64,000 bases of DNA from IMG/VR virus record IMGVR_UViG_3300021255_000060, positions 62,961-126,960 of that record. One strand, 5' to 3'. Position numbers and translations under genes: made by a program. A model generated the notes under the pieces. That model was not told where the DNA came from. It saw only the letters and a list, made by a program, of their open reading frames with translations, and made no database searches. The stretch comes from a virus (Duplodnaviria > Heunggongvirae > Uroviricota > Caudoviricetes). Below are positions 1,283-23,461 of the stretch, piece by piece; within the stretch, counting starts at the first letter, position 1; the number at the start of each line of letters is the position of its first letter.

Positions 1283-1948
1283 TTAGAACGGAAGATCTGA
1301 ATCTTTATCGTCACTAATACCAAGAGCGTCACTTAGACCATCAAGAGTAGAATCACTCTGAGTAGCCATATTTGTCGGACGAGAGTTCTGAGCAGCTTCA
1401 ATTTTACGCTGTTCTGACTGAGAAAGAGTAAGATTGTGACCAATGAATCTGGTTGCAATTCCAAGAGCACCTACTTTATTAATACGAGCAGGAAAACCAG
1501 GAATGTCATTAAATCCAGTATTCTGAGGAACCAACTTAACTTCAACATCAGTACCAATTGCAGATGCTGTATATTTTGCAGCAAGCTTTACGATTGTGTC
1601 AAAATCACCACCAATCTTAGCAGTTCCATTATCAATTGCTTCACCAATCTTAGGATTTACTGCGTCAAAAATCTGACGAAGTGCAATCATAAAGTGCTCT
1701 ACAGGAGAAGGATTTAGACCAAACTGACTCTCAGTTCTTTCTGCACTTTTTGGTTCAAAGAAGTTGTGCGTAAATTCTCCATAACCATCGATATCAAGCT
1801 TAAGAGACATTACTTTATATGTACTTCCATCCTTTTGTGAAGTAATTTTTCCGAGTTCAAGACCATTAAACTTTGCGTTGTGAATTCCCGCTGTAAGCAT
1901 TTTTCCACCTTCTTTTACGCCGGTGGTAGCACTCATATCAAAATTCAT
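1283..1948 (-). CDS. putative ssDNA-binding / replication accessory protein with an SSB-type acidic C-terminal tip (..DKDSDLPF)
   Basis: Intact 221-aa ORF with a Gly-rich central part. Its last residues, DSDLPF, resemble the bacterial SSB C-terminal tip DDDIPF. Confidence 0.35.
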   Translation of the reverse strand: MNFDMSATTGVKEGGKMLTAGIHNAKFNGLELGKITSQKDGSTYKVMSLKLDIDGYGEFTHNFFEPKSAERTESQFGLNPSPVEHFMIALRQIFDAVNPKIGEAIDNGTAKIGGDFDTIVKLAAKYTASAIGTDVEVKLVPQNTGFNDIPGFPARINKVGALGIATRFIGHNLTLSQSEQRKIEAAQNSRPTNMATQSDSTLDGLSDALGISDDKDSDLPF

Positions 1949-1973
1949 ATAATACTATTTTTAAGTTATTTTA

Positions 1974-2513
1974 TTAAAATGGAAGATCATCTTCCACAGA
2001 GGCCATTAAGGTCTCAATCTCTTTATCTAATTCTTTTGAATCCAGATTGTCAAGATCTTGCTGTTCTTGAGTTAAATCTTCTGGAGTTTCAGTTGTAGGA
2101 ATTAATTTCCAAATACCTTCTTTATATGGTTCAAGTGTAAACAATGAGCCAAAGTCAAGAAGTGTTGTTCTTTTCTCTCCTCTAAAAGATACAGTACCTG
2201 ATTTTGTAAGTCTATTGCCGTCTAGTCTGTCAGTAAAAACTTCTGCTTTACCGATAACAGGACATGATTTTCCTACACCTTCAGATATATATTGAATAGA
2301 AATTCTATCATCTGCTACAGCATTTAGTTTTTCTAATGCTGATTTGGATAACTTCAATTTATTATCAAGAACCTCTAATTCAATGTTTGCATCTGGAACA
2401 GATACTGTTTTATCTACTGATTGAATTTTGACTTCAGAAATAGTTTTTCTCTCTTCGTCAAAAATAAAAGAAATTTTATACATTATGCTAAACTTGGATA
2501 AATTCTTTCCCAA
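1974..2513 (-). CDS. hypothetical protein, acidic C-terminus ending EDDLPF (second SSB-tip-like tail)
   Basis: 179-aa ORF. The C-terminus ...LMASVEDDLPF repeats the D-D-L-P-F tail motif. Confidence 0.35.
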   Translation of the reverse strand: MGKNLSKFSIMYKISFIFDEERKTISEVKIQSVDKTVSVPDANIELEVLDNKLKLSKSALEKLNAVADDRISIQYISEGVGKSCPVIGKAEVFTDRLDGNRLTKSGTVSFRGEKRTTLLDFGSLFTLEPYKEGIWKLIPTTETPEDLTQEQQDLDNLDSKELDKEIETLMASVEDDLPF

Positions 2514-3220
2514 TGAGATGTGAATGTTCCATCTTCATTACGTTCTGCAACAATTATGTCTTTGTTTGCTAAATGTTTGGGTCTAGCACCAGTGAGAACT
2601 TCTCCATCTTGACCAAAATTGATACATAGATTAGAATCTTCATCACGATGTACAAATCCAATTGCATCAGATCTAGCAGATAGAATTCTTTTCAGTTTAC
2701 CAGTTAGATCTAAATCTTTAACTGAACCATCCAATCCTTCGCTAAGCGATACATCTCTAACATGTCCACAAAGAATAATATTATCTGTTGCACTAGCAAT
2801 TAAATCAACAATAGATTCTACGGCTTGCCGAAGAAAAGTATATCCAGAACCATTCGGTAATCTTGTAACATCAGATACATCAGCATATCTATCTGAATAC
2901 ATTGGAGACCTTTTATACAAACTAATAGCTACAGGTTTTGCCATTTCTTCAACTGCTGTGATTGTATCTATTGTAATATATTTATATGGCTTACCTGCGT
3001 CTTTAATTGCTTTAATAGTTTCTTTTAAAGTAGATAAATTATCAATTTTTATTTTAAGTGCATCAACGTATGTTGTTCCGTCTTCAAAATCCAGTATCAG
3101 ATTGTTTTCAAGAGTACTTAAAATCGTAGTCTTTCCTACTTTAGGCAATCCAAATAATATCAAATACTTAGGATCCTGCGTTTCGGCAGGAACTTTTGTT
3201 TTAGGTAATTCAATAGCCAT
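2483..3220 (-). CDS. P-loop NTPase (phage AAA/RecA-like ATPase)
   Basis: Walker A motif FGLPKVGKTT near the N-terminus and a hydrophobic Walker-B-like strand IILCGHVRD. 245 aa. Confidence 0.5.
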   Translation of the reverse strand: MAIELPKTKVPAETQDPKYLILFGLPKVGKTTILSTLENNLILDFEDGTTYVDALKIKIDNLSTLKETIKAIKDAGKPYKYITIDTITAVEEMAKPVAISLYKRSPMYSDRYADVSDVTRLPNGSGYTFLRQAVESIVDLIASATDNIILCGHVRDVSLSEGLDGSVKDLDLTGKLKRILSARSDAIGFVHRDEDSNLCINFGQDGEVLTGARPKHLANKDIIVAERNEDGTFTSHWERIYPSLA

Positions 3221-3376
3221 TTAAAAATTAAATATTATAGGCTGTTTTTCTTCAACTTGTTTGGAAGTTGAAGTATCTTCTTTTAACGTTTCTTTTCTTA
3301 TTTTACAAGGGATATTTTCACGTTCATTATGAAAACGTGTATAATCCGTGATTTGATCTGGAGGTGGTAAAGCCAT

Positions 3377-4906
3377 TCACCATCCAACACTACCAAAAAA
3401 GTTAATATTTATTACTTGATCTGCAATTCCATATCGGTGTTTACTAATTATAATTGAACGATGGTCTCGACCCAATCCATTATCCCCAAGAATTCTATAT
3501 CCACGGTAAGTGGCGAGTTTTTCTCTAAATGGATAAAACAATTGTAATACGACATCTGAATCCTGAGCAACATTTCCAGTCTGTTTAATATCATTGATTC
3601 CAGGTTCTGAAAGATCTGCTTTTCTTCTATCCATAGAAGTAGAATCTCTATTTTGTTGCATTAACATAAATCAAGACATGTTCAATTTATTTTTTAGTGT
3701 CACCATATAAGAAGAACAGATATCTATTTCTTCTTTTACGGTTCTACCTTCAGATGGTTGTAATAACAAACCATGATCAATTACTCCAATTAATAATTGT
3801 TTTGAATTGTTCGGAACATAAAACTTTTTTCCATCTGATTCTTCCCATTTGCCAAATTTTTCTGCAAAAGATAAAGTCTCTTTGTATAGAACTTTACAAT
3901 TACACATTTTATCTACAACATGTAACGAATCAGATATGCTTGCTATTCATTTTCTTGCCGCTTTTAAACATTCATATGCATCATCATTTAATGGAGTCTG
4001 AAATGATAATATATCATCCAATGTTAGATATATTCCAAATTCTTCAGCACAATATAATCCCATTAATTTTGCCAATAAAACAGATTCCGGAATTTCCAAA
4101 CTAAACACTAAAAAATGAATATCATCTTTATCTGTTTTATTTTTAAGCATACTATACATTATAAATTGGAGCAGTGAACTCTTACCTGCAGAACTTTGTG
4201 CTGCAATGGTATAATAGCGAGATGGTTGGATTCCTCCAATCACTTTATCTAATTTTGGAATACCTGTTGATACTCCGATATTTTCACCACGACGACCCTT
4301 GTCTATTTGACTTCATAAAACTTCTAGACCTGTCATTTAAATGCTTTCATAAACATTAAACGTACTTTCCACTTGTCCTTCTTGTGGATGATCTTTAAGA
4401 TATTGTAAATCGTCCCATTTATGAGATAGTACAAATTCAGTAATCCCAAAGTTAATATGATTGTGTTCTTTAGCTCAATCCAATATTTCCATAATTTCTT
4501 TATGTTTTTCTGGATTATGCTTTATTGCTGAACTATAAGCAAAGAAAAATTCATCTAAAGAATCAAATTTCTTACTTATATTTTTAAGTGAGACCATTCT
4601 TCCATTTATTGTTAAATATGGAGGATAGTTATCAAATAATTCTTTCCCAAGTTGTCCTGAACACTTAATTCAGCCTTTAAGGAAATTTTTATTGAACTCA
4701 ATGTCGTCTGGTGAATATTTTTCTGGATTATAATCTTTATGAATAATCCCCTTCTCTTTTAAAGATTCAAATAAATTACGTAATTTAGACTGTCCACCAT
4801 TGCAAAGTCATTTTGCAATATACTCAGGATGTCCTTCTTCTTCTCTGGCTAGAAACGTTAAATATATCAAAAGAAGCTCATCTGCAGTCAAATTATACGT
4901 AATCAT
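3377..4906 (-). CDS. DnaB-like replicative helicase (RecA-like C-terminal domain) with about five in-frame TGA codons
   Basis: ORFs 3377..3667, 3671..3907 and 3947..4243 are all in one frame (ends 1 mod 3) and are separated only by TCA (TGA) triplets. IGGIQPSRYYTIAAQSSAGKSSLLQF matches the DnaB Walker A motif. NMS[W]FMLMQQNRDSTSMDRRKADLSEPGINDIKQ..DSDVVLQLFYP matches the DnaB ALSQLNR...SDLRESG..EQDAD block. Hand translation from the ATG at 4906 stays open except for TGA. Confidence 0.65.
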
Positions 4907-5012
4907 TAAATTTAAAATTGTATTTAATTCCAATTGTTGCTAAATTAATATGTCCAATTTAACAACATGCTCTAGACTGTGCATTTTGTGCATTTTAAGA
5001 GCTTGGTGCGAG

Positions 5013-6230
5013 TTAAAATCTAAATTCTAAGTTTTCTACATATTCTCTTTGTCTAGTTTCAATTCTTTCTCCAGCAAGTACTCTATCTAGTTGATCTTCA
5101 TTAATAGTAATCACTCTAGACGTCTTGCTATTAGCTAGTCAAGTTACTTCTTGTGTACCTTTTAATACAAGTGTAAATATTTCTGCAACTTTTCCTTCTT
5201 CGTACCGAATACTTCTACCAAGAACTTGTGTTTTTCTAATTTTAGATGAATTTGTATATAAAATGATTTCTGTATCAATGCCCGGAATATCCAATCCAGT
5301 TTCAGCAGCTTTTGATGTATGCATTACACCGCTAGTACAAGCATTAAATGCTTCTAAAGTTTCTTGATTTTTCTTCTTTGATTTTTTAGAATGCATTATA
5401 AATCCATCACCAAGTTCTTCTGCCATTTTTATTGTAGCAGAGAATGTTAGACACTTTCGATCTTTTCTTGCAGCAAGAATCTTCTTTGCAACTTCAATCT
5501 TTTTTGGATGATTGAGTATGAAATCTTTTCTTGCTTTCATTGTACGCATGAAGGTCATTGCCATTGCAGTTACTACCTTTGCTTCGTGTCTATTATTTTT
5601 AGCTCAAATATTTCTAGCACGAACATCAGTAGCAAGTCTCATAGCTAAATTAAAATCAAATCCAAAGAATGCAAATGCACTATTGAATTTTTTATTAATT
5701 TCTTTGTATTCTGTTAGATCTACATCTAACATAACAACATATTCTCTGTGTGGTGCAACTCAACCATTGGTTTCTGCTTCTTCAATAGTAATACGGTCAC
5801 AAATAGGTGCATACTTTTCTATAAGAAGATGCCGCATATCCAATCTTTCCATTGTTCCAGTTAAACAAAGAATAAATTTATACTGTACTACTTGAAATAC
5901 TTGTGAGAAAGTTTCTGCACCACACTGGTGTACTTCATCCACTATTAGAAGATCACAAGTCCAATCCAATTTAATTACACTATTAATGATTTCAACACGA
6001 GTATTTAATCCAAGTCCTCTAGCATCAATTTGTTCAATTCATTGATCTTTTAAGACCTGGGTTGGTACAACAACTAAGACTTGAGCAGTAGGATTTTTAG
6101 TAATAAAGGCATCTATAAGGTTTAATGCTACACGAGTTTTACCAAATCCGGTGCATGCAACAACTGAAGCACGACCACCGAATTCTAATCATCGTTTAAG
6201 ACACTCCTTTTGCCTTTGAGTTCTATCCAT
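5013..6230 (-). CDS. superfamily-2 DNA helicase (DEAD/DEAH-like)
   Basis: Motif I ACTGFGKTRVAL (hand translation of 6121-6180). Motif II LLIVDEVHQCG. Motif III LCLTGTMER. Motif VI TQVLGRSIRYEEGK. ORFs 5139..5564 and 5760..5969 are in one frame and are interrupted by TGA. Start ATG at 6230, true stop TAA at 5013-5015. Confidence 0.65.
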
Positions 6231-7148
6231 TTACCACGGGTTTTTCTTACAGTTCATACAGTCATAATCTGTACAATAATGACATGGCAAATCATCATCG
6301 TCATCATACTCTCGAGGACTATCGTCATATGCATCACTTCTCCAATCCCATCCTCCATAAGTTTGAGTTCTAGGAACATATTCAATCTTTATATCATATT
6401 GTTTATCTGTAGGAATTGTCAAAAGTAATTTTTCCATAAAATTTAGACAGTTCTGAAGTTCGGAAATTATAGTATATTCCTTGTCTGTATGTTCTTTATA
6501 ATAACCACAAGAAATATTAACTCCAGATATTTTTAATTCTTCTGCAAGAACACCTATATCTGTTCCTATACCAGGAGCTTCAGAATATCCAAATTCTGCC
6601 ATTACACCAGATGCTTCTTCCAACCATTTGTCTGATGCAGAATCAATTCCATTAGTAAATGTAATTAAATCTGATTTTCCATGTCTATCTGCTTGAATCA
6701 TATATGACACATTATACCAAAAATCTATATTTTCAGCAGCAGAATATGCACCATTATATCCAATTTCTTCTTCGGTAGTAAAACAAACTTTAAGATTTGG
6801 AATGCCTTTTAAAAGTTGAATTGCACAGCAGATACCATTAGCATCATCCATACCCAATCCAATTCTTTTATTTGTTTTAACGTCCTTACCAAAGATTTTA
6901 CCTTGCTGAATATCAACTTGTTTATTCTTATGTGGTAAAACACAATCAGTATGACAGACAACTGCTGGATAATATTCTGGATTTGAACTGTTTTTAGTAA
7001 TAAAAATGTTATTATAACTATCCATTTCAAAATCCAATCCACCTATTTTATAGCACTCATTTATTATAAATGAAAGCATAGGCCATTCTTGTTTTGATGG
7101 ATGATCAATAACAAGTAATCTTTTCAATAATCTTAAATCTAACTTCAT
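6231..7148 (-). CDS. M42/M20-family metallopeptidase-like protein
   Basis: Motifs AVVCHTDCV, GLGMDDANGICCAIQLL and TTEEEIGYNGAYSAA resemble the H.D / G.A.DDr.G / QEEvGlrGA signature of M42 aminopeptidases. 305 aa, ends at TAA. Confidence 0.45.
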   Translation of the reverse strand: MKLDLRLLKRLLVIDHPSKQEWPMLSFIINECYKIGGLDFEMDSYNNIFITKNSSNPEYYPAVVCHTDCVLPHKNKQVDIQQGKIFGKDVKTNKRIGLGMDDANGICCAIQLLKGIPNLKVCFTTEEEIGYNGAYSAAENIDFWYNVSYMIQADRHGKSDLITFTNGIDSASDKWLEEASGVMAEFGYSEAPGIGTDIGVLAEELKISGVNISCGYYKEHTDKEYTIISELQNCLNFMEKLLLTIPTDKQYDIKIEYVPRTQTYGGWDWRSDAYDDSPREYDDDDDLPCHYCTDYDCMNCKKNPW

Positions 7149-9025
7149 AGGGTTAGTTGTTTGGTGTCTAAGACATCAATAATTTTATAAACTTCGTGTA
7201 AATAATACTGATAATTTATTTTACGTTCATTTATTGACTTATCATCAAAAGTGTTATATAGTGTTACGCCAGAATCTGCACATAATGTAGTTGTACGAAT
7301 ACGTCGACCGTTTTCTAATTTAAATTTAATTAAATTTTTACCGTTTGTAGACATATAATATCTATTTATATGCCTTACAGGTTGACCACCATATTCTACA
7401 AAGAAATCCTTTGCAACCTTCTGATATGTACAGAAATCAAGTATATTTGTACAACTTTCAATTGTTTGTTCTGGATCAGTACCATCAATAAGATAAGCAT
7501 TAATTGCTTTTGGCACTATCATTGGAGCCATACCCTTTCCAAGAGATACTTTATCAATAAACAATCCTTTAGTCTTTATAAGTTTTGGATCGTGAGTTTC
7601 ACTTCATCCTTTTTTAATACCAAGATAATCGTTGATTGCGTATTGATAGAATCTTTCAAATTCTTCTCTTTCCAATTCCAATCCAGTTAAATTTTCCCAT
7701 CATTCTTTCACCTGATTAACTGCATCAATTTTATCTTTACTGACACTATACAATAGACCATCAGTATTAGATTGTACAATATGACCTCCTGCAAGCATTA
7801 TAGACTCTGCATACATCAGTAATAATAACTGACCATTGATTCTAATACGTAGTACAGCTTTAGGGTCATATACTCAAGAATAAGGTGATTGAAGGTTACC
7901 AGTTAAACCATTAATTGCTAACTTGTAGGTCTCATTCTTTAACTTATTACCATTGTGTTTTGCTTCAATTCGATCATCTCGAATTTTTTTATACACTTGT
8001 ACAAATTCAGGACCTAAGTGTTGAGGATATATACTATTCTGAATAATAATTGATGGATATAGTGAAGCCACATCGTCATCATATAGAACAATGCTATCAT
8101 CAGGCTCAAACGCTTCTGGTTTATTAACACTATGTAATCCTCCCATACCAAAAGTATGTTCCACTCCTCCTAGAAAGAATTTTCTTTCAAAGGAATTATC
8201 ATTTGGATCTGCACAATGCTGCTTAAGATCAGATAATAACTTTTGTAATTCTGGAGTTTTAAATTCTATATAATCAAATATTATATCGCCAAAACATAAT
8301 CAGTCACATGGACTACGAAGATCTTTTATATCTCTTCACTGTAATCCTGTTGTTTCAAGATATTTTGTCTTGATAATTTCCATACCAAGATTAACTCCAT
8401 CCTTATTTAATGCTGATATACCAAATTCTTCTTCAACCGCTAATCTAAGTTCAATGTCTTTAATTGATTTATTTAACAGTTCTTCGGTAGAATTTACATC
8501 ATTTGCATTATACTCAAGAATTGTTGGTATTTGAGAAGGCGATACTGGTTTTTCAAAATCACCTTCATATTCCTCAACATTTTTATATTGCATTGTAACT
8601 TGCATCTCTTTTAATCCAACTCTCAGCTTCTGAGAAAATCTCATAGCAAGTAAATCTAGACTTGGAAATAAATGAGCATATTTATATTTTGATCATGAGC
8701 TAAAATTATTATCTTTCGACATAATTATTTCATCACTTAAGTCTTTTATAAACCTTAAGATATCTTCTGCAGGTTTAGAAATAAGTGTTGTAAAGTTCAT
8801 AATCAAAGCATTTATGATAGGATCATCATAGTGCAGATTATTAAATCCGCACCATCAGATACTTTTATTTAAAAATAATTTAACAATCGCTGCTAAATCA
8901 TTTTGTCACATAGATATCTGAAAAGAACGTAAATTTTCAGATTCAGTATTTTTTACAGTAATTGTAAATAAATTGGGAAATACTTCAATATCATAAACAA
9001 ATACTGTTTTCCCTTTTATTAGCAT
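7139..9025 (-). CDS. family B DNA polymerase (compact, about 628 aa) with 3'-5' exonuclease motif; several in-frame TGA codons
   Basis: Hand translation from the ATG at 9025 gives MLIKGKTVFVYDIEVFPNLFT (Exo I D.E motif). ORFs 8336..8644, 7874..8164 and 7145..7564 are all in the same frame. YDDDVASLYPSIIIQNSI is motif A (D..SLYPS). KLAINGLTGNLQ is motif B (K...NS.YG-like). LCADSGV is the motif C region. The frame ends at TAG 7139-7141 after a TGA at 7145-7147. Confidence 0.65.
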
Positions 9026-9867
9026 TAATATTCTTTAGTTTTGAGTGTAAAACCTTTTTGTTCAGCTACCTTTTCCAGTTTATACTTTAAATCTTCCCAT
9101 TTATTTACATGATACTCTAAATCTTGATCCAATAGCAACAGTGCTTTATCTCTAAGAAGTTTTAATGTATCTGTAGGGAAACTTGAAAATTTAGGACGCC
9201 CTTCAATTTTTACTAAAGATCTAAACTCATAATATGATAGTCCAGTAGGAACAAATCTCAATTCTACATTTGGATTCAATAACAATCTTTCTTTGATAAC
9301 ATCTTTTCTGTTCCTCATTTTACCAGATTCATCGAATTCCGTTAGTTCTTTCTTTTCTGATTCTGTTAGCCAAATACCTAAAGATAAAATAAATTTATCT
9401 GAAATCAGTCTTCTATTAAACGCCTCAAGTGAGTCTAAACAAGCGGCAAGTAATTTATCAATTGTTACAGTTGTAAATACATCAGGCAATCCATTAAATA
9501 TTGTTACAACTGAATCAGAATTAAGTACTCCGTTTATTTGTTTCTGTGCATTTATAAAATCTAGTAAATCTCTACTAGTCTTAAGTGTATCTATATTACA
9601 ATCATGAAGAACATATCTATGTAGTAATTCAGCATTTGCATTGTCCCACATTTTTCTTATTTGGTCTTTCTTTCTATAAACTCCCGGATGATAGATATCT
9701 TTATTATAAAGCATATCTAATACATGTGTATATGCTTGCTGCAATAAAGCATAATTCATATCCATCATTCTAATTTCCGTCTTATTTGAGTTTACTCAAA
9801 TTCAACGATTAATATCGTTTTGTTTTGCATCAATTGCCTCTGTAAGTTTATAAGCTAAATCACTCAT
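9025..9867 (-). CDS. hypothetical protein immediately upstream of the PolB gene
   Basis: ORF 9025..9768 extends upstream through two TGA codons to the ATG at 9867 (MSDLAYKLTEAIDAKQNDINR W I W VNSNK...). Its stop overlaps the PolB start (TTAATG). Confidence 0.4.
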
Positions 9868-9870: not shown

Positions 9871-10182
9871 TTAAAAATTAAATTCTTTTATTTCTAGTTT
9901 AGGTTGTTCCTTAATAAAATGCAGGAAATAACACACTGTATAATTATACGTTTCTCTATTTCCTGTAGAAGCCTGAAAATATTCATCTCCAGCATTTACG
10001 TATTCACATTCTACAAATCCAATATCATCTATCTCTGGATTGACACCACACCAATTTGGTGGTTTGGTTACTGTGAAATATCTTAATAAACTATTTTCTG
10101 GTTCATCTAAGTTTTTAAACACATATAATGTATATTGTCCAGGCTGTATTGCTACTACTTTTCCTTTGAAGGTTGTTCGCAT
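9871..10182 (-). CDS. hypothetical protein
   Basis: Intact 103-aa ORF. Confidence 0.3.
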   Translation of the reverse strand: MRTTFKGKVVAIQPGQYTLYVFKNLDEPENSLLRYFTVTKPPNWCGVNPEIDDIGFVECEYVNAGDEYFQASTGNRETYNYTVCYFLHFIKEQPKLEIKEFNF

Positions 10183-13590: not shown

Positions 13591-15180
13591 TTATATTTCT
13601 TTAAAAACGTCTTTATCTACAATGATACAATTTGTAGAAATAAACATATTTAAAACACTAACTGCATTTTCAAAACTTAATCTATCTGCTTTAGTTGGAT
13701 TGATAATTCCGGACTCTAAAAAATTAACATACTGTTCTGTTTCCGCATTCCAAGATATGTTTTTATCAGGAAATACCTTCCTTCCAATTTCTTTAGGATC
13801 ATATCCGGCATTAGAAACAATTGTATCAAAAATAGAAGTAAGACTTTGTTTTACAATATCAATTCCACGTTGAATTTCGTCATCATCGTTACTTGGCATA
13901 GTTAGAAATGCTTTTAAATAAGATAGACCACCTCCTGCAACAATACCTTCTTCTAATGCTGCTTTTGTGGCACAAACTGCATCGTCAATCCTATCTTTTC
14001 TTTCTCTCATTTCTAATTCAGAATTACCTCCAACTCTTATTACACCAATTCCTCCATTAAGTCTAGCGATACGCTCCTTTAAAAATTTAATTTGAATTTC
14101 TTCTCCAGATTGTATTGACTTTAATTGTTCTTTTAAAGAATTTACTCTTTCTTCAATCATGCTTTTAGTTCCAGAACCTTCCAATATTGTAGTACTATCT
14201 TTTGTAATAATAACCTTGTTGCATGATCCAAGCATTGATCCATCTACTTTTTGAAGTTCTATTCCATTATCATATGTAGAAATTTGAGCTCCAGTTAATA
14301 TTGAAAGATCTTCTAGTATAAATTTTCTAAATTCTCCAAATGACGGGGCTTTAACAAGACAACTTTTTAAAATTCCCTGAAGATGATTAATTCTCATATT
14401 TTGAATGACTTCATCATCAAAATCTTGAGCAATTATTAATAAAGGACGATGATTTTTAGCACAATATTCTGCAGCAGGAACAATATCTCTCGTTAGCTGT
14501 ATTTTTTGATCAGTAATTAGAATTAATGGTTTTTCTAATACACATTCACCTTTTATTTGATCTGTAATAAACCAATGTGAAACAAACCCACGATCAAACT
14601 GCATACCTTTTACTATGTCGATACTTGTTTGATTATTTGAAGATTCTTCTACTGTTATAATTCCATCTTTTCCAATTTCTCTAAACGCATTAGATACAAG
14701 TTTACCTATAGTACTATCGTTATTAGAAGAAATAGAAGCTATTTTTTCAACATCTGATTCTTTTATATCAATAGAAGATTCTAATATAGTCTTTTTAACT
14801 CAATCTACAGCAATATTTATTCCTTGTTTTATAAGAGATATATTTTTAAACCCAGACAAATATTCGTTATATGCATTATTTACCATATTAAACGCAAGTA
14901 CTGTACTAGATGTAGTAGAATCTCCAACACTATTAACAGTATTTAATGCAGCTTGCTTTAATAATGTCGCTCCAACATTTTCAAATTTATCTTCTAAAAA
15001 TATATTTTTTGCTACAGTAACTCCGTCTTTAGTTACATGAGGAAGTCCATTACTATAATCGTCAATTATTACACACTGACCTTTTGGACCAAGTGTAGAA
15101 CCAACAGCTCTTGCTAATTTAGACATTCCTGTTATAAGACTTCCTTTAGCAAAATTATCAAATTTTAGTTCTTTAGCCAT
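13591..15180 (-). CDS. groEL: GroEL-type chaperonin (Cpn60), at least one in-frame TGA at 14800-14802
   Basis: N-terminal part MAKELKFDNFAKGSLITGMSKLARAVGSTLGPKGQCVIIDD...TKDGVTVAKNIFLEDKFENVGATLLKQAA...GDSTTSSTVLA. C-terminal part ...LNGGIGVIRVGGNSELEMRERKDRIDDAVCATKAALEEGIVAGGG. Both ORFs are in the same frame (ends 0 mod 3) and are joined by TGA. Confidence 0.7.
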
Positions 15181-16582: not shown

Positions 16583-16732
16583 AGTTGAGGACTATTCAAT
16601 AAATTCCTTTTATAACATTCGTTCATTATTAAAAACGATACCACTGTTGGTAACGAATATATTATTACATATTCCATAATTTAGATAATTAAAGCCTCAG
16701 ATGCAAATTAGATAGCTTCTGAGGCGGTAGTG

Positions 16733-16803
16733 CGGGCTTGTAAAGACTCGAACTCTAACAAATGGTTTTGAAGACCATTGTCCTACCATTAAACGACAAG
16801 CCC
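16733..16803 (-). tRNA. suppressor-type tRNA with anticodon UCA (reads UGA; Trp-inserting by the paralogue evidence)
   Basis: Minus-strand sense GGGCTTG..AATGGTAGGAC.. anticodon stem ATGGT/ACCAT with loop CTTCAAA (U33, anticodon TCA, A37). T-arm TAGAG-TTCGAGT-CTTTA. Acceptor GGGCTTG/CAAGCCC. The D-arm is non-canonical. Confidence 0.5.
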
Positions 16804-17451: not shown

Positions 17452-17663
17452 AATACTTTATTCACATGTTTAGTTCGTGTACGTAAACGAATCAACGCAT
17501 TAAGAAATACATCGTTTGTAAACGGTAAAAAGTTTTAAAATAATTCGCACTATCTACTCCATGGGTTTCTTCTCTAGTTAGTATTGCTCTAATTGCCTAG
17601 AAGCCGCAAATTAGTACTATAAGCTTTTTATACAAGAACTTATGACTTGTACATGATTTTGAA

Positions 17664-17912: not shown

Positions 17913-18969
17913 TTCCTATAAATTCTTCTAGTGTTCTTTTTCCACAATAACTCATTGTAGAACTAATAGCTGCTACAAATTGTTTTTCAAATTCAGGAAG
18001 TGTATTGTCTACTTCTATCCATTTTTCTTTGCCTTCTGAAAGTTTAATCTTAGTGTTACCCATTTCTTTTTGGGCCCTTTCAGTAGACATTCCATAATAC
18101 TTTCTATATGTCTTACGTTTAAAACTTATTGCACCTGATTCAGATTTAGCTGGAATATTAATAACTCTAGTTTCTCCACAAGCTTCTTCACATGCAGCAA
18201 ATAGTTTACCACACATTACATAATCTGCACCAATAGCAAGAGCTTTAATAATATCAGATATACTATCAATTCCTCCATCTGCTACAATTTTTGGAACAGA
18301 TTTATAAATGCCATCAAAATTCTTTATATTATTCTCAACATAGAATTTTCTATTTCTACAGCTTAGAATTAATTCAATAGGATCAAAATGAATTCCTGTT
18401 AAATCTGTAGTTGCACAAACATTGCCTGTACCAATACCTAATCTAATGTAATCAATTCCTGCTTTTGCATATTCCAAATATGTATTTGGGTTTGCTATAT
18501 TACCTGCCATTAAGATTAAATTCTCTCCAAATTTATTTTTTGCTTCTGTACACATATCAATTAATTTTTTCATGTGGCCATTAGCAATATCAACACAGAT
18601 TCGATATTCATCTTCAAGCGAATCATGTTCATCAATAAATTTTCTAAATTCATCTAATCCAATAGCAATCCAAATTAGTTGCTTTGCAATTTCTAGTCTT
18701 CTTTCATAAGACACCGTTCTTGGAATAATAGTATTAATACTATTTCTATCAAAATCAAGATAATTTTTATCATTTACAATAGATGACATTGGTGCAGTAA
18801 AAATTGGAAGATGTGCACCAGCTAAACACCACGCATCTGCATCATCAGACCAAAAAGCATCATAGTAAGGTAAACATTCAGAACGATGTTCAATATCTGA
18901 AATTACTGCAGGAATAATTTTAATTCTGCTATACTCACTCATAAATTTGTTCTCCGTTATAATTTGCAA
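17896..18969 (-). CDS. guaC: GMP reductase / IMPDH-family enzyme (GuaC-like)
   Basis: PIFTAPMSSIV (cf PIIAANMDTV), CVDIANGH (CIDVANGY), LMAGNIANP (ICAGNVVTG), GIGTGNVCATT (GIGPGSVCTT), ADGGIDSISDIIKALAIGADYVMCG, YYGMSTERAQK (FYGMSSESAMK). Confidence 0.65.
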   Translation of the reverse strand: MQIITENKFMSEYSRIKIIPAVISDIEHRSECLPYYDAFWSDDADAWCLAGAHLPIFTAPMSSIVNDKNYLDFDRNSINTIIPRTVSYERRLEIAKQLIWIAIGLDEFRKFIDEHDSLEDEYRICVDIANGHMKKLIDMCTEAKNKFGENLILMAGNIANPNTYLEYAKAGIDYIRLGIGTGNVCATTDLTGIHFDPIELILSCRNRKFYVENNIKNFDGIYKSVPKIVADGGIDSISDIIKALAIGADYVMCGKLFAACEEACGETRVINIPAKSESGAISFKRKTYRKYYGMSTERAQKEMGNTKIKLSEGKEKWIEVDNTLPEFEKQFVAAISSTMSYCGKRTLEEFIGNVSYR

Positions 18970-19129
18970 TAAAATCCATTTCTGGGATTACTTCATCAGT
19001 AGAAAAATAATTTTGAATTTTATTTTTATAAGATCTTACCAATATAAAATTATCATCTAATACATGACGAATTATGTATTTTACATATCCGTATGTATTT
19101 TTATGATAAACTATTTCTCCTGCATGCAT
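18935..19129 (-). CDS. hypothetical protein
   Basis: 64-aa ORF. Confidence 0.2.
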   Translation of the reverse strand: MHAGEIVYHKNTYGYVKYIIRHVLDDNFILVRSYKNKIQNYFSTDEVIPEMDFIANYNGEQIYE

Positions 19130-19416
19130 GGTTCTTCCAAAAATAATGTTAGATTGTTTTGTTTTAATTGTGTTTGTGTTAAAGGCCGAGTTAATGAAAA
19201 ACGATAGTCTTGATTATTTCCATCACTATCATATACAGTAACAATTATGTGTTTTTTGTTTAAATCAAAAATCCAACCTTTTAAAATCTCTCCATCTGAA
19301 TTTTGAATCCAGATTGTATCAAAAATCTCCAAATCTTGAAGAGTTTTAGAAGGAGGTGTAATAGGAACTTCAAGACCTGGAGATAGCCATTTTATTATTT
19401 TATTTAAAATTTTCAT
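19111..19416 (-). CDS. hypothetical protein
   Basis: 101-aa ORF. Confidence 0.25.
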   Translation of the reverse strand: MKILNKIIKWLSPGLEVPITPPSKTLQDLEIFDTIWIQNSDGEILKGWIFDLNKKHIIVTVYDSDGNNQDYRFSLTRPLTQTQLKQNNLTLFLEEPCMQEK

Positions 19417-19434
19417 AATATTTAATTTAAGTTA

Positions 19435-19521
19435 GGGAGTAGTAACAGATTCGAACTGTTGTGTTACTTTCGTAAAGCAGAGCCACATTCTGCTGGCATC
19501 GACCATCTAGCCGAACTACTC
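19435..19521 (-). tRNA. class II (long variable arm) tRNA; anticodon loop reads ATGTGGC, so the apparent anticodon is GUG (atypical)
   Basis: T-arm AACAG-TTCGAAT-CTGTT. Acceptor GAGTAGT/ACTACTC. Variable-arm hairpin TTAC-GAAA-GTAA. The anticodon stem GCAGA/TCTGC is the same as in E. coli tRNA-Tyr. Confidence 0.45.
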
Positions 19522-19761
19522 CATTACAATTACAGAATAATAATCAATAAAATTATCTGTAAAATCTGACCAATTAATCCACCAATCATAGTTGCACACC
19601 AATCCAATCAATCCCAATGTTCTCAAGATCAATCCTTAATTGGCTTATAATAACTATATTTGGCTTCATCTTTAAATTCCATTCCAGAAGCAAGTCCTGC
19701 TACAAAAAGAATAGTAAATAAAAATCCTGCGGGAATAGCAAACAACAAGTGCTTATCCCTA

Positions 19762-19941
19762 TTACTCTCTTTCAGTCACATCGCTATCTAATGCTTCATA
19801 GTAATCTATCTTCTTTTCCCGACGTCTTTTCTTTTCAGGATACTTTGCTTCTTTTGGTTGTTTTGATTTTTTGCTACGAACTTTCTCGAATGTTACTTCG
19901 TCTTCTTCATGTTCTAGTTCGTAAAGAGAAACTTTAGGCAT
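19762..19941 (-). CDS. small basic protein (59 aa)
   Basis: Hand translation: MPKVSLYELEHEEDEVTFEKVRSKKSKQPKEAKYPEKKRRREKKIDYYEALDSDVTERE. Confidence 0.25.
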   Translation of the reverse strand: MPKVSLYELEHEEDEVTFEKVRSKKSKQPKEAKYPEKKRRREKKIDYYEALDSDVTERE

Positions 19942-20115
19942 TTAAAGAAATATAAATTAAACATAAGACACTGAAAGTTACTTTCCACTTACAAGTCACC
20001 CATAACATAGGGTTTACGTTCTGATTTAGCTCAGACCGCTGCTTGTCCAGCAAGCCACTGGTTACATGTTGTTTAATTAAAATCACCTTTGATTTTGTAA
20101 GTGTCTTCTAATATG

Positions 20116-20190
20116 TCGGAGCACGTAGATTCGAACTACGGACCCTCTGCTTGTAAGGCAGATGCTCTGAACCAACTGAGCTATGCTCCG
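20116..20190 (-). tRNA. tRNA-Val (UAC)
   Basis: Sense CGGAGCA-TAGCTCAGTTGGTTCAGAGC..TCTGC-CTTACAA-GCAGA..CGTAG-TTCGAAT-CTACG..TGCTCCG. Confidence 0.6.
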
Positions 20191-20194
20191 ATAG

Positions 20195-20266
20195 TACTCG
20201 CGCCCAGATTCGAACTGGGGTTACTGCCGTGAAAGGGCAGGGACTTAACCATTGGTCGACACGAGC
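20195..20266 (-). tRNA. tRNA-Glu (UUC)
   Basis: Anticodon arm CTGCC-CTTTCAC-GGCAG. T-arm CCCAG-TTCGAAT-CTGGG. Acceptor GCTCGTG/CGCGAGT with G-U pairs. Confidence 0.5.
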
Positions 20267-20269
20267 ATA

Positions 20270-20600
20270 AATCCAGAGTATTGCACCCTCTGGCATGGAG
20301 ATGAAACCTAACAGCACTCCTAGGAAATTACTCCGTGGTCTGTCGCCTACATGCACTGCAGTCAATTCGGCTCAAGGGCTCTGGTTTGTCTCAATTTAAT
20401 ATAGCCCTTTGTTATAGTGACCCCGACGAGGCTCGAACTCGTGACCCCAACATTAGAACCGTTAACGGGACTTGCACCCGTGCCTCACTTGTTTCCCAAG
20501 TGTTTTCCACTACTCGAATTCTAACGGTTTGGTTCGTTACGGTGAACCACTCCTTATAAAGTGTTGTGCTCTACCAACTGAGCTACGAGGTCTTTCCACA
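20270..20600 (-). ncRNA. GC-richer ORF-free structured region with tRNA-like pieces (unresolved)
   Basis: Contains a canonical tRNA 5' half GACCTCGTAGCTCAGTTGGTAGAGCAC (sense of 20563-20592), a TTCGAGC T-loop-like hairpin at 20432-20448, the direct repeat GTGACCCC twice, and the hairpin CCAGAG..CTCTGG. I could not fold a complete cloverleaf by hand. Confidence 0.3.
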
Positions 20601-20634
20601 CCGTTTAGATGATGTCCAGAAATATTTCAAACAA

Positions 20635-20976
20635 CTATAAATCAAACTCTTCGTTTTCTTGGCCATATTCACCGTAAAAGTTCCTAAGAGCTTTTGTTGC
20701 ATCCATAAGTTCCTTTACTGTATGCGTCTCTGAATCTGTAATTACCACAATGTAATTCTTCACCAATTCGGTATATTTCTCAATCTCTTCATCAGTTGGA
20801 CTTTCAATGTAGTAAAAATCATCTTCCTTTGAAATAGACCAGTCCCCATTATGTTCAACGAGTTGCCCGAATGTTTTTCTTCCACAAGGAAAACCATAAA
20901 AAGTGCGGTTTGCCCATTCGCCGGTCTCAATCCATCCAAGGTTCTTAATAAAATCAAGTTTTTCTTTATAATTCAT
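20635..20976 (-). CDS. hypothetical protein
   Basis: True start probably MNYKEKLDFIKNLGWIETGEW... The N-terminal extension of ORF 20635..21186 is a translation of tRNA sequence. Confidence 0.35.
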   Translation of the reverse strand: MNYKEKLDFIKNLGWIETGEWANRTFYGFPCGRKTFGQLVEHNGDWSISKEDDFYYIESPTDEEIEKYTELVKNYIVVITDSETHTVKELMDATKALRNFYGEYGQENEEFDL

Positions 20977-20999
20977 AAACCTTAAATTTTTTAAATTTG

Positions 21000-21072
21000 T
21001 GATACTACCGGAATTAGAACCAGAGGCCCATACATTAAAAGTATATTGCTCTACCAACTGAGCTACAGGACC
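21000..21072 (-). tRNA. tRNA-Lys (UUU)-like, imperfect stems
   Basis: Sense GGTCCTG-TA-GCTCAGTTGGTAGAGC-A-ATATA-CTTTTAA-TGTAT.. The T-stem and acceptor carry G-U pairs and mismatches. Confidence 0.4.
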
Positions 21073-21077
21073 AATGG

Positions 21078-21150
21078 TGACTCCAGATGGATTCAAACCA
21101 TCGACCCACAGCTTAGAAGGCTGTTGCTCTATTCGCTGAGCTATGGAGCC
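21078..21150 (-). tRNA. tRNA-Arg (UCU)
   Basis: Sense GGCTCCA-TA-GCTCAGCGAATAGAGC-A-ACAGC-CTTCTAA-GCTGT-GGGTC-GATGG-TTTGAAT-CCATC-TGGAGTC. Confidence 0.6.
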
Positions 21151-21195
21151 ATTTAAATGTAACTTAATAATACGTTGCTCTACCAATTGAGCTAC

Positions 21196-21265
21196 TGAAA
21201 ATCTTCAGATGAGGATCGAACTCATAACATACGGGTTTCAGGCCAATTTTGATTTGTAAGTTACA
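21196..21265 (-). ncRNA. tRNA-like element: ACTTACAA motif, T-arm-like hairpin ATGAG-TTCGATC-CTCAT, then a 3' hairpin; no 5' half
   Basis: Same architecture as the elements at 16845-16925 and 28150-28228. Confidence 0.3.
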
Positions 21266-21403
21266 TATAAATTTAAATTACAATCCAATAATAAATTGCA
21301 TGAACTAAACTCTTAGCATATTGTGTTTTGTGTTTATACACAACATAATATTTATATCCAAAACTTCTCAAAAACTGAGTAGCTTTTATGATTCTGGGCA
21401 TTG

Positions 21404-21592
21404 TTAACTAAGTTTATTAATCCACCAACCAATTACGTCTTTATGAGGTTTATATAATGCAGCTACAAGTAGTAAAAATACTACTGCAGGAATAACCCAA
21501 GAAATAGGAGTATATACTGCCCAACATATACAAGCTGCAATTGCAATAATATCAAATAATACAATTAAAATTGTTCCAATAATAGCATCCAT
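21404..21592 (-). CDS. small membrane protein (2 TM helices)
   Basis: 62 aa, hydrophobic. Confidence 0.3.
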   Translation of the reverse strand: MDAIIGTILIVLFDIIAIAACICWAVYTPISWVIPAVVFLLLVAALYKPHKDVIGWWINKLS

Positions 21593-21594
21593 AA

Positions 21595-21816
21595 TTATTT
21601 CTTTTTAAATGGGTTAGAAGAAGACAGTCCGGTCCATCCAACATAAGTCCAAATTGACATAAAAAATATTAGAAGGAGAGAACCAAATACAACAACAACT
21701 TCAGGAAGTGCGTATGTCCAAAGCATAATAAGTCCAACCACTCCACAAATATCCAAAAAAATTACTAATAAAGTAACTAAAATGGCTTTAATTTTGTCTT
21801 TTGTTAAATCAGTCAT
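21595..21816 (-). CDS. small membrane protein (2 TM helices)
   Basis: 73 aa, adjacent to the previous gene. Confidence 0.3.
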   Translation of the reverse strand: MTDLTKDKIKAILVTLLVIFLDICGVVGLIMLWTYALPEVVVVFGSLLLIFFMSIWTYVGWTGLSSSNPFKKK

Positions 21817-21818
21817 TT

Positions 21819-22088
21819 TTATTTAATAAGAGCTCGTTTAGTGAAATCTTTTATAATGGCAACTAAATCATTAGTATCGTTAATAGACCAACCGTTATTT
21901 CCAGTTTTAATATTAATAAATCTTGCTACGCCATTATTTCTAGCAGTTAATGTCAAATCTTGACATTCATCTCTATCTTCTGTACAATCTACAGTCTGTA
22001 TATATGTAATACTAACTTCATCTATACAGACTTCGTAATCTCCATAATTCATTTCCTCGAAAGGAACAATCTTTTGTTTATTTTCCAT
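21819..22088 (-). CDS. hypothetical protein
   Basis: 89-aa ORF. Confidence 0.25.
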   Translation of the reverse strand: MENKQKIVPFEEMNYGDYEVCIDEVSITYIQTVDCTEDRDECQDLTLTARNNGVARFINIKTGNNGWSINDTNDLVAIIKDFTKRALIK

Positions 22089-22106
22089 AATAAATAATTA
22101 ATTTTG

Positions 22107-22177
22107 AGCAGAGTAAGGGAATTGAACCCTCGTATCAAGCTTGGAAGGCTTGCATTCTACCACTGAACTAACTCTGC
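22107..22177 (-). tRNA. tRNA-Gly (UCC)
   Basis: Sense GCAGAGT-TA-GTTCAGTGGTAGAAT-G-CAAGC-CTTCCAA-GCTTG..GAGGG-TTCAATT-CCCTT-ACTCTGC. Confidence 0.6.
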
Positions 22178-22186
22178 TTTATTTAG

Positions 22187-22274
22187 TGCCCATAGCAGGA
22201 CTCAAACCTGCACGCTACTATTACTTCGCACTTGATCCTAAGTCAAGGGTGTCTGTCTATTCCACCATATGGGC
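22187..22274 (-). tRNA. tRNA-Leu (UAG), class II
   Basis: Anticodon arm CTTGA-CTTAGGA-TCAAG. Long variable arm. T-arm GCAGG-TTTGAGT-CCTGC. Acceptor GCCCATA/TATGGGC. Confidence 0.55.
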
Positions 22275-22318
22275 ATAAGCGTTGTTATAAAACCGTGCAA
22301 CGCCACACGTTTGGTTAA

Positions 22319-23461
22319 TTAAAAAGGAATTTCTTCATCAAACATATTCATCTGTTGTTCCAATAAACTTGTTTTGGTGTTTACTGGTTCTTTGAACATT
22401 CTTAAGATATTGTCTTTATTACAATCAACAAATTTCTGAGCAACATCTTTTGTACTATCTTGAACCATTCTATCATATTTTAAATAAATTTGATCAAATA
22501 TGATATTATTGTGCATACCGGGACGTACACTAAAGGTGCAATCTTCTGGATATCTCATGTGAAATGCAATGTATTCTTTATTGCGAATTCTAGAATAATA
22601 ACATCTGTAAAGACAATGACACATCATTTCACTTTCCAGAAAAATATCTTTCTCTGTATTTAGAAGTTTAATGTTATCATCACCAATTACTCTTGTATAA
22701 ATCGGAGTTTCATCTTTTTTAGATAATTCTCCGTTTCTTTTAGCAAGAATTTGCTTTTGGTGTTCTTCATTAATTCTTTTTCCTGACCAAGTAAAATCTA
22801 CAATTTGATTAGATTCACAAGCGTACGTTAATAAATCACGATACAGATGTAGATTAGTAAAATGACGTTTAGCAATAACCTGAATACTTTGTTCTACATT
22901 TTTTGTAAAATCTCGTAAGTCATATATACTAAATTCATAAAAATTAGAATTAGTACAGTATTCTCTAACACTTTTCCATGATACATCTTTTAATTGGAAA
23001 CAAGATGCTCCAATTCGTTTATATAATGTTTCTTCACTATATATTCTTTTTGTAAGAAGTGCTCTAAGTATCGTTGATTTTACAAAATAAAAACTTCTAA
23101 TATATTCAGGAATATCTCTAAACCAATTTAAGTTTAAATGTTTTAAAAGAAGCATAACAGCTTCAGCATTACCTCTGACTATAACTTTATTTGGTTCAAT
23201 ATAGACAGATGAAGAAGTTTCTGATTTTCTAAAAATTCTACAGCCAACTCTATTTACTTTTAGAAAGTTAACTGTTGCATAAATTGCATTGTTTTTTACA
23301 CTTAATTTAAATAATTTGTCACCTTGACCTGCATAGTTATATTTTTCTTTATAACTAAGTTCATTAAAATTAAGTGGAAGTTGTTTACAAAGTACTTCTT
23401 GAAAAGAAGTTAATGGAAAATTCTCTACAAACTTTCTAAGTGTAATAGGTTTCTGTTTCAT
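22319..23461 (-). CDS. hypothetical protein (380 aa) ending DEEIPF (third SSB-tip-like tail)
   Basis: Intact ORF. C-terminus ...QQMNMFDEEIPF. Confidence 0.35.
   Translation of the reverse strand: MKQKPITLRKFVENFPLTSFQEVLCKQLPLNFNELSYKEKYNYAGQGDKLFKLSVKNNAIYATVNFLKVNRVGCRIFRKSETSSSVYIEPNKVIVRGNAEAVMLLLKHLNLNWFRDIPEYIRSFYFVKSTILRALLTKRIYSEETLYKRIGASCFQLKDVSWKSVREYCTNSNFYEFSIYDLRDFTKNVEQSIQVIAKRHFTNLHLYRDLLTYACESNQIVDFTWSGKRINEEHQKQILAKRNGELSKKDETPIYTRVIGDDNIKLLNTEKDIFLESEMMCHCLYRCYYSRIRNKEYIAFHMRYPEDCTFSVRPGMHNNIIFDQIYLKYDRMVQDSTKDVAQKFVDCNKDNILRMFKEPVNTKTSLLEQQMNMFDEEIPF

Follow-up and report, generated by a model that had tools for sequence, protein, structure and literature searches.

Three unrelated proteins of a gut phage end in a short acidic-hydrophobic peptide resembling the C-terminal tip of bacterial SSB. 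The three ORFs lie on the minus strand of the window (the whole 64,000-nucleotide stretch of phage DNA that was analyzed), and their products, here termed F1, F2, and F3, end in DSDLPF, EDDLPF, and DEEIPF, respectively. The explanation that we favor, and hold to be fairly probable, is that F1 is an SSB with a docking tip and that F2 and F3 carry the same portable peptide, all three addressing a common pocket or pockets.

1283 to 1948, minus strand: F1, 221 aa, probable SSB, ending DDKDSDLPF (tip codons 1286-1297, TAA 1283-1285)
1974 to 2483, minus strand: F2, 169 aa, predicted MraZ/AbrB-like protein, ending ASVEDDLPF (tip codons 1977-1988, tandem stops TAA TAA)
22319 to 23461, minus strand: F3, 380 aa by translation, putative PcfJ-like protein, ending NMFDEEIPF (tip codons 22322-22333)

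The Shared C-Terminal Tip

All three C termini described in the initial annotation were found in the minus-strand translations. The pattern given there, D-(D/E)-(L/I)-P-F, does not cover F1, which ends S-D-L-P-F and fits [DE][LI]PF. In a scan of the C termini of all 329 ORFs of at least 40 aa in the window, F1, F2, and F3 alone (3/329) ended in PF or in [DE][LIVMF]P[FWY]. Using the amino acid composition of the 111 code-4 ORFs, we calculated a chance expectation of 0.004 for C-terminal [DE][LI]PF and a probability of ∼1e-8 for three or more.

Three trivial origins of the tip were considered and rejected. Chance is ruled out by the 0.004 endings expected against the three observed. A DNA repeat is ruled out because the three 3′ ends use differing codons and have unrelated flanks. 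An artifact of a recoded TGA stop is ruled out because F1, F2, and F3 all stop at TAA, so that the gene ends are the same under code 4.

The tips also have the layout of an SSB C terminus. In each protein, [IL]-P-F directly precedes the true TAA stop, and acidic residues stand just before the hydrophobic tip (D-S-D in F1, E-D-D in F2, and D-E-E in F3). Averaged over each family, the net charge of the C-terminal 15 residues is −3.7 for F1, −4.6 for F2, and −2.3 for F3, and the low pLDDT of the modeled F1 and F2 tails is consistent with the flexible linker of SSBs. None of the three proteins matched the Pfam profile of canonical SSB (PF00436), and their predicted folds or families differ from one another, in agreement with the earlier description of them as unrelated. 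For comparison, three proteins end in LPF in the whole genome of Streptococcus mutans UA159, and two of these are SSBs (PMC5143411).

Conservation among orthologues, which had been proposed as a check, was strong for F1, held largely for F2, and held in part for F3. The tip is conserved in F1 and F2, and partly in F3, though the rest of the proteins diverges to 36-60% identity. Enrichment and conservation together support the proposal that the tails are selected SSB-tip-like motifs rather than chance endings.

Genetic Code and Gene Order

The source is a large gut phage in which TGA is a sense codon. Greedy ORF coverage of the window is 0.90 with code 4 vs. 0.74 with code 11, and a tRNA with anticodon tca explains the recoding, which alters ORF calls regionwide. 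Searches of annotated phages with the window DNA gave no near match, and protein searches against phages returned unannotated fecal phage records only. Contigs holding relatives of the phage were binned to Bacillota metagenome-assembled genomes, the host assignment thus being one made by metagenomic binning alone.

16732 to 16803, minus strand: tRNA with anticodon tca, reading UGA (ARAGORN; Rfam tRNA, 60.1 bits)
271 to 1272, minus strand: Toprim primase, 333 aa with code 4 (Pfam Toprim_2, 1.3e-5; PHROG DNA primase)
2483 to 3220, minus strand: Sak4-like AAA_24 ATPase, an ssDNA-annealing RecA relative (Pfam AAA_24, 3.2e-21; PHROG 124, Sak4-like, 4.9e-24)
3221 to 4336, minus strand: DnaB-type helicase, 371 aa with code 4 and with in-frame TGA codons, ending QPIIFNF (Pfam DnaB_C, 5.7e-21)
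5013 to 6230, minus strand: SNF2/DEAD-type helicase, 405 aa, ending ENLEFRF (ResIII and Helicase_C on orthologues)

The replication module runs in the order SNF2 helicase, a 198-aa protein, DnaB, Sak4-like ATPase, F2, F1, and Toprim primase, the last lying immediately downstream of F1. This gene order confirms the placement of F1 and F2 in the replication module, near the primase and an ATPase.

F1 Is Probably the Phage’s Own SSB

F1 is probably the phage’s own SSB, of the noncanonical type that accompanies Sak4 recombinases. The structure models of F1 and F2 are of moderate confidence only; F1 is modeled as an OB fold rich in helices, its nearest structural matches being PrgE and viral DUF669 models, so that the suggestion of an OB fold at 1283-1948 is borne out in the predicted structure. 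PrgE, encoded by plasmid pCF10, shares 12% identity with F1, has 144 aa, and also binds dsDNA. The modeled F1 core resembles DUF669/N4-type members, and F1 has in addition an acidic C-terminal tail (residues 190-221, pLDDT ∼46-51) and a location in the vicinity of sak4. DUF669/N4-type proteins are SSBs with acidic C-terminal tails, and ∼80% of sak4 genes adjoin an ssb gene (PMC4889955; PMC5928155). At all loci examined, the order sak4, F2, F1 is kept, which places F1 one gene from sak4, not adjacent to it.

The tip of F1 is nearly invariant: it is retained in 116/120 protein clusters, the DLPF ending is present at 76/82 loci, and D218 does not vary in the alignment. If F1 is the phage’s own SSB, as is most likely, its tip is a native feature, of a kind usual in Sak4-associated phage SSBs (PMC4889955, PMC5928155). 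The idea that the tails mimic the SSB tip is therefore not supported for F1, and only F2 and F3 are non-SSB carriers.

Profile searches did not place F1 in a known family. Pfam and PHROG searches with the window protein gave no match, nor did Pfam searches (DUF669 and PF00436 included) with 51 close family members. Thirty remote relatives had no Pfam match and no meaningful PHROG match, one of them matching an uncharacterized PHROG marginally (E 0.0058), and a PDB profile search with F1 found nothing. Aligned by hhalign with the HK620 SSB, F1 scored a probability of <1% against a shallow template (Neff 1.15, relatives 87-100% identical). As a control, the experimentally validated HK620 SSB itself had no Pfam match at E ≤ 0.01. 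A locus search with a small remote-F1 alignment returned three loci. With the assignment proposed here, the F1 family, at least 243 protein clusters and currently unannotated, gains a likely function (SSB, predicted).

F2 Combines a Predicted DNA-Binding Core with a Less Constant Tip

The extent of 1974-2513 first given for F2 was too long: an alignment with 50 homologues places the start at the ATG at 2483 (MYKISF...). The sak4 (AAA_24) gene lies upstream, and its stop codon overlaps this start. The F2 core (residues ∼36-129) is predicted to adopt an MraZ/AbrB-like swapped-hairpin fold, which would bind DNA, and the acidic tail (residues 130-169) has a pLDDT of 54-60. The SpoVT_AbrB and MraZ Pfam profiles matched none of 51 F2 members, 33 of which gave a subthreshold match to Big_14, and a PDB sequence search with F2 found no match.

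LPF ends the protein in 86/111 F2 clusters, and the tip is present at 51/89 loci, x-LPF being kept in most lineages, not all. A 28-locus clade and several smaller lineages have lost the LPF tip from F2 and kept it on F1, which indicates that the tip is dispensable for the core function of F2. For the small tip variants DLPL, ALPF, and DLPF, no covariation was seen between the F1 and the F2 of one contig. At two loci (L006 and L047), the tails of F1 and F2 both extend beyond the Phe; three other F2 proteins with one or two extra residues accompany normal F1 tips, in pairs made solely by equal-sized contigs. In some lineages, the F2 ending drifts to LLKI, DFNNL, FNL, or DYEF, all acidic-hydrophobic.

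This drift would also suit an alternative that we consider unlikely, in which the acidic tails act mainly in cis as DNA mimics, folding back onto the DNA-binding surface of the protein that bears them, and the common ending reflects similar physicochemical needs instead of a shared partner. Tails that regulate the protein’s own DNA-binding surface are known in E. coli SSB, T7 gp2.5, and T4 gp32. A weak affinity of the SSB tail for the DNA-binding site of its own protein is cited in PMC5928155, and F1 and F2 both combine a predicted nucleic acid-binding fold with the strongly negative tail charge given above. However, self-inhibition needs acidity, not a near-invariant terminal D-L-P-F, and F3, whose tail is far less acidic and for which no DNA-binding fold is predicted, bears the tip all the same. 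Moreover, the same tip doubles as a partner-docking site in all studied SSBs, so that action in cis would mostly add to the docking explanation.

F3, a Putative PcfJ-Like Protein, Has a More Variable Tip

By profile similarity, F3 appears to be a divergent PcfJ-like protein. PF14284 (PcfJ) scored 13.6 bits on the window protein (E 0.058; cutoff 25) and was matched by all 51 aligned relatives at E ≤ 0.1, the best at 1e-11; three homologues also carry a precomputed PcfJ annotation. The gene lies ∼20 kb from the replication module between tRNA genes (22106-22274 and 23485-23559). The ending [DE]-hydrophobic-P-[FYW] occurs in 20/62 relatives and degenerate forms of it in ∼20 more; in most relatives, the tip is degenerate, and LPY and LPW endings are tolerated.

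Such tolerance bears on a second alternative, that C-terminal LPF is a degradation signal for a host ClpXP-type protease, which would give the proteins a joint turnover and might, for example, time early functions. [quoted passage not shown] The LPY and LPW endings in the F3 family and the putative host phylum, Bacillota, are in line with such a signal. However, its recognition is strain dependent within S. mutans and absent in E. coli and Streptococcus gordonii, and all three LPF positions mattered, LPY alone being tolerated among LDF, DPF, and LPY (PMC5143411), whereas F3 of the window ends in IPF. The degron needs no acidic residues, yet those before LPF are conserved here, F1 D218 without exception, and an unstable SSB would bring the phage little gain. 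We therefore regard degradation as an improbable reason for the shared ending.

Proposed Mechanism and Candidate Partners

The docking explanation builds on a motif that is real, terminal, nonrandom, and conserved, on the gene order, and on the predicted folds; from these, we infer ssDNA binding by F1 and DNA binding by F2, and all partners named here are candidates. The near-invariant D-L-P-F of F1, on its flexible acidic tail, would serve for docking. If it works like the tips of bacterial SSB and the HK620 SSB, the acidic residues and the terminal Phe with its free carboxyl end would enter a pocket of the partner, and the F1 tail would thereby bring partners to SSB-coated ssDNA. Because F2 and F3 carry the portable peptide of F1, they could, although not SSBs, reach the pocket or pockets that F1 uses. 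F2 may do so while bound to DNA, and would then either bring the partner to that DNA or compete with SSB for it. This arrangement suggests that the replication proteins are assembled via a small set of portable docking peptides.

The most likely receptors, proposed by analogy, are one phage protein and a group of host proteins. In HK620, both the binding of Sak4 to SSB-coated ssDNA and its stimulation require the last six residues of SSB (PMC5928155), which makes the Sak4-like ATPase (2483 to 3220) a candidate phage-encoded receptor. S. mutans SsbA ends in DDDLPF (PMC5143411), and the match of the phage tip to Firmicutes SsbA (DDLPF) makes host proteins that read the SsbA tip the other candidates.

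Identity with the Firmicutes SsbA tip would also be expected if F2 and F3 were decoys that block the SSB-tip pockets of host repair or restart proteins or of an SSB-sensing defense, instead of recruiting these proteins to phage DNA. The F3 gene sits apart from the replication module, with tRNA and accessory genes around it, and the tips of F2 and F3 vary more than that of F1, as expected of an arms-race interface. However, the F2 gene forms part of the replication operon, and every lineage shows its translational coupling to sak4, so that a replisome or recombination component fits F2 better, and we consider the decoy role quite unlikely.

Comparison with Known Systems

In bacterial genome maintenance, recruitment centers on the SSB tip, a hub on a flexible tail for many of the proteins involved and an antibiotic target under study. 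Like that tip (DDDIPF in E. coli and DDDLPF in Firmicutes SsbA), the phage tips consist of acidic residues followed by [IL]-P-F at a free C terminus. The bacterial tip sits on the canonical tetrameric OB fold of PF00436, whereas F1, F2, and F3 give no match to this family.

In work from the Richardson laboratory, the acidic, Phe-ending tails of T7 gp2.5 (SSB) and gp4 (helicase-primase) reportedly dock T7 DNA polymerase; the phage studied here likewise has an acidic tail with terminal Phe common to unrelated proteins. T7 differs in its peptide, which lacks LPF, in the folds that bear it, and in having a known partner. Unlike gp4, the helicases here bear F-x-F, and the proteins that share the tip are MraZ-like and PcfJ-like. 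The T7 SSB tail is discussed in PMC12339929.

A close parallel in layout is the HK620 SSB (HkaK, DUF669/N4-type), in which a terminal hexapeptide, NDYPPF, both puts Sak4 onto SSB-coated ssDNA and stimulates annealing (PMC5928155). As in HK620, a noncanonical phage SSB (here predicted) with an acidic tail and a terminal aromatic residue is encoded near a Sak4 AAA_24 ATPase. F1 differs from the HK620 SSB in carrying a bacterial-type DLPF and has no detectable sequence similarity to it; moreover, a tip-bearing gene, F2, sits between sak4 and ssb, and a third, unlinked protein, F3, also bears the tip.

As far as our literature search reached, the SSB tip has been described on SSBs only, and its presence on unrelated non-SSB proteins would mark it as a portable module. 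F2 and F3 would then be two new proteins whose partners simple peptide pull-downs could find. The case could also reveal how an uncultured, TGA-recoded phage of the gut that encodes PolB, DnaB, and primase itself still joins the host clamp and SSB networks.

Other Conserved C-Terminal Peptides in the Module

A broader reading, which we put forward tentatively as possible but doubtful, is that the replisome is wired by a code of interchangeable C-terminal peptides. DLPF would mark the SSB, the MraZ-like DNA-binding protein, and the PcfJ-like protein; F-x-F would mark DnaB, the SNF2 helicase, and a 103-aa protein; and a clamp-type QLSLF would mark PolB. F2 would be an adaptor whose tail was swapped in evolution, with LPF vs. 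FNL, FKL, or LLKI by lineage, and the SSB tip would let the non-SSB proteins either draw on the SSB interactome of the host or obstruct it.

The helicase endings are well conserved. DnaB ends in F-x-F at 68/81 loci and in [FY]-x-[FL] at 75/81, and the SNF2 helicase, of the same F-x-F class, ends in RF at 47/51. The polymerase was recognized by its motifs, a Pfam search with it giving no match.

7139 to 9025, minus strand: family-B DNA polymerase (PolB), 628 aa with code 4, ending KQLTLWS (DIE, SLYPS, and NTDG motifs)

The PolB ending appears, by its sequence, to be β-clamp-binding-like: the clamp-binding consensus is QL[S/D]LF, and Bacillus subtilis PolC carries QLSLF at its C terminus (PMC12309361). 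Like the DLPF tip, the clamp-binding motif is a portable C-terminal peptide by which unrelated proteins reach one hub; the two differ in peptide and in hub, which for the clamp motif is DnaN, not the SSB partners. QL[STM]L[FW] stands at the C terminus of PolB or at most three residues from it in 69/79 relatives, and this PolC-type motif is an independent sign that the phage uses host-hub peptides.

Tip-bearing genes and the genetic code of the phage

Three minus-strand ORFs were initially annotated as ending in D-(D/E)-(L/I)-P-F, resembling the C-terminal tip of bacterial SSBs. All three C-termini are present, but F1 has Ser at position −5 and so matches [DE][LI]PF while falling outside the stricter hexapeptide. 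The F2 start, first placed at 2513, was corrected to the ATG at 2483 by alignment with 50 homologues; this start codon overlaps the stop of the upstream gene.

Tip-bearing genes, replication module (read under code 4) and TGA-reading tRNA
271-1272, minus: Toprim primase
1283-1948, minus: F1, candidate phage SSB, 221 aa, C-terminus ...DDKDSDLPF
1974-2483, minus: F2, predicted MraZ/AbrB-like fold, start ATG 2483, 169 aa, N-terminus MYKISF..., C-terminus ...ASVEDDLPF
2483-3220, minus: Sak4-like AAA_24 ATPase
3221-4336, minus: DnaB
between DnaB and the SNF2/DEAD helicase, minus: 198-aa protein
5013-6230, minus: SNF2/DEAD helicase
6231-7148, minus: M20-like peptidase
7139-9025, minus: PolB with DIE, SLYPS and NTDG motifs
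16732-16803, minus: tRNA, anticodon tca (Rfam, 60 bits)
22319-23461, minus: F3, divergent PcfJ-like protein, 380 aa, C-terminus ...NMFDEEIPF

The tip finding is real. Among the 329 window ORFs of at least 40 aa, only F1, F2 and F3 end in PF or [DE][LIVMF]P[FWY], and they are also the sole tip-bearing ORFs under code 4; composition predicts 0.004 such termini in 111 code-4 ORFs (P for three or more, ~1e-8). As a yardstick, the whole genome of Streptococcus mutans UA159 encodes three proteins with an LPF end, two of them SSBs (PMC5143411). Copying of a DNA repeat was ruled out as the origin of the tips, because the 3′ ends of the three genes differ in codons and have unrelated flanks.

The phage decodes TGA as a sense codon. 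Under code 11, DnaB and primase seem broken up, and in-frame TGA codons lie within DnaB, primase, PolB and other genes; greedy ORF coverage of the window was 0.90 with TGA as sense (code 4) vs. 0.74 under code 11, and a tRNA with anticodon tca is encoded. Of the 111 complete code-4 ORFs, 78 terminate at TAA; the three tip genes are among them, and their ends are therefore unaffected by the recoding. A second suppressor-type tRNA (20999-21073, minus; anticodon tta; Rfam tRNA, 42.6 bits) would read UAA, and any such read-through would bury the tips, adding 20 aa to F1 and 26 aa to F3; F2, unlike these two, ends in tandem TAA TAA. The window carries an array of 18 tRNA genes (16732-44192, minus), and F3 is flanked directly by tRNA-Leu/Gly (22106-22274) and tRNA-Pro (23485-23559).

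F1 and its conserved tail

Very probably, F1 is this phage's own SSB. DUF669/N4-type proteins have acidic C-tails and are considered divergent OB-fold SSBs (PMC4889955), and an ssb gene adjoins ~80% of sak4 genes (PMC5928155). F1 itself had no Pfam or PHROG match, and a PDB sequence search returned none; DUF669 was not matched in Pfam by 51 close relatives, nor in Pfam or PHROGs by 30 remote ones, and hhalign of F1 against the HK620 SSB gave a probability below 1%. The validated HK620 SSB likewise has no Pfam match, which makes the HMM test of F1-DUF669 kinship a weak one.

Clustered at 50% identity, the F1 family comprises at least 243 clusters. Of 120 protein clusters, 116 have a D-[LM]-P-F C-terminus; D218 and P220 do not vary, and DLPF ends the protein at 76 of 82 loci; remote relatives carry other acidic-hydrophobic ends instead (e.g., DLDFDL, DFNL). 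The module order (PolB, M20-like peptidase, SNF2/DEAD, 198-aa protein, DnaB, Sak4-like, F2, F1, primase) is shared by relatives as distant as ~40% identity (contigs of 85-180 kb). DNA and protein searches of annotated phages found no close annotated phage. Contigs of F1 relatives were binned to Bacillota MAGs (unclassified Bacillota bacterium, Faecalibacillus, Roseburia), a weak hint of a Bacillota host.

F2 and F3 carry the tip on non-SSB proteins

Mimicry of the SSB tip by three proteins, as originally proposed, holds for two: F2 and F3 are true cases of an SSB tip on non-SSB proteins, whereas the F1 tip is most likely a native SSB tip. An LPF end is found in 86 of 111 F2 clusters, preceded by D, A, S, I, V, K or Y. 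In a 28-locus clade F2 ends in ...NSDLLKI while F1 still ends in DLPF, and smaller F2 lineages have DFNNL, FNL or FKL, DYEF and DLENL ends, again beside an F1 with DLPF. The F2 changes and the remote F1 ends were seen across L006, L047, L053-L087, L088-L090 and L092-L094. Among the F2 changes are the ELKFNL and ELQFKL ends of the homologues in the remote loci L088-L090, and F2 seems to have changed its C-terminal peptide class in evolution.

All 51 aligned F3 relatives match Pfam PcfJ (PF14284) at E ≤ 0.1 (best, 1e-11), with the window F3 itself below the cut-off; no solved relative of this PcfJ-like family was found. Of 62 F3 tails, 20 are [DE]-hydrophobic-P-[FYW], 10 [DE]-hydrophobic-P and 9 [DE]-hydrophobic-x-[FYW], and some relatives bear two tandem copies (e.g., DLPLWNQDLPY). 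Lack of tail conservation, named at the outset as grounds against the tip reading, is contradicted by F1, mostly by F2 and partly by F3.

What the tips may bind

The strongest precedent is the HK620 DUF669 SSB, whose last six residues are required for Sak4 binding to SSB-coated ssDNA and for annealing stimulation in vitro and in vivo (PMC5928155). If F1 works in a similar way, its tip would be what loads the adjacent Sak4-like ATPase, and F2 and F3 would reach the same pocket or pockets through the same peptide. Receptors among the host's SSB partners are just as plausible, since the phage tip matches the Firmicutes SsbA tip, DDDLPF (PMC5143411). F2 and F3 might instead be decoys blocking those partners; F3 could play this part, whereas F2, whose gene sits within the operon, is a less likely decoy. 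The tails may also act in cis as DNA mimics, probably alongside docking, as the tails of known SSBs do. LPF serves as a ClpXP degron in some S. mutans strains (PMC5143411); this function is unlikely here, as that recognition is strain-specific, F3 carries IPF, and conservation extends to the acidic residues, which degradation does not need.

Docking on host hub proteins draws independent support from PolB, which ends in ...KQLTLWS; QL[STM]L[FW] lies at or within three residues of the C-terminus in 69 of 79 PolB relatives (L095-L174). This peptide matches the bacterial clamp-binding consensus, QL[S/D]LF, and the C-terminal QLSLF of Bacillus subtilis PolC (PMC12309361), suggesting that the phage PolB uses the host beta clamp. 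A conserved F-x-F C-terminus is common to DnaB (...[TI]F[SNK]F across loci, ...IIFNF in the window; F-x-F in 68 of 81 loci), the SNF2 helicase (...[FY]RF, window ...LEFRF; RF in 47 of 51) and a 103-aa protein (9871-10182, minus; ...KEFNF). Given these ends and the F-x-F-type F2 of L088-L090, the module seems to employ at least three C-terminal peptide classes, with F2 switching between classes. The SSB-Ct hub, Sak4-SSB tail dependence and shared T7 tails are already known, and the present case is a variation on these: as tails are shared between proteins in T7, the tip is shared here by F1, F2 and F3.

Other features of the window

Region 44000-52000 has a G+C content of 0.40-0.42 vs. ~0.31 elsewhere; its GC skew is flat, and neither code yields more than a few convincing ORFs there; an Rfam search of it found no RNA family. 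A 529-aa GroEL-like chaperonin with a GroEL-like N-terminus lies at 13591-15180 (minus), and its orthologues in L005 and L006 match Pfam Cpn60_TCP1. The 280-aa protein adjoining PolB (9025-9867, minus) has a weak match (E 5e-4; 20.6 bits, below the cut-off of 27) to the second palm domain of Cas10/Cmr2. PolB is intact (628 aa) in the window and in L002 (3454-5340); in the close relative L001 (2364-5345), a LAGLIDADG endonuclease gene separates 148-aa and 484-aa parts, and L004 and L007 have GIY-YIG gene insertions close to DnaB or the helicase.
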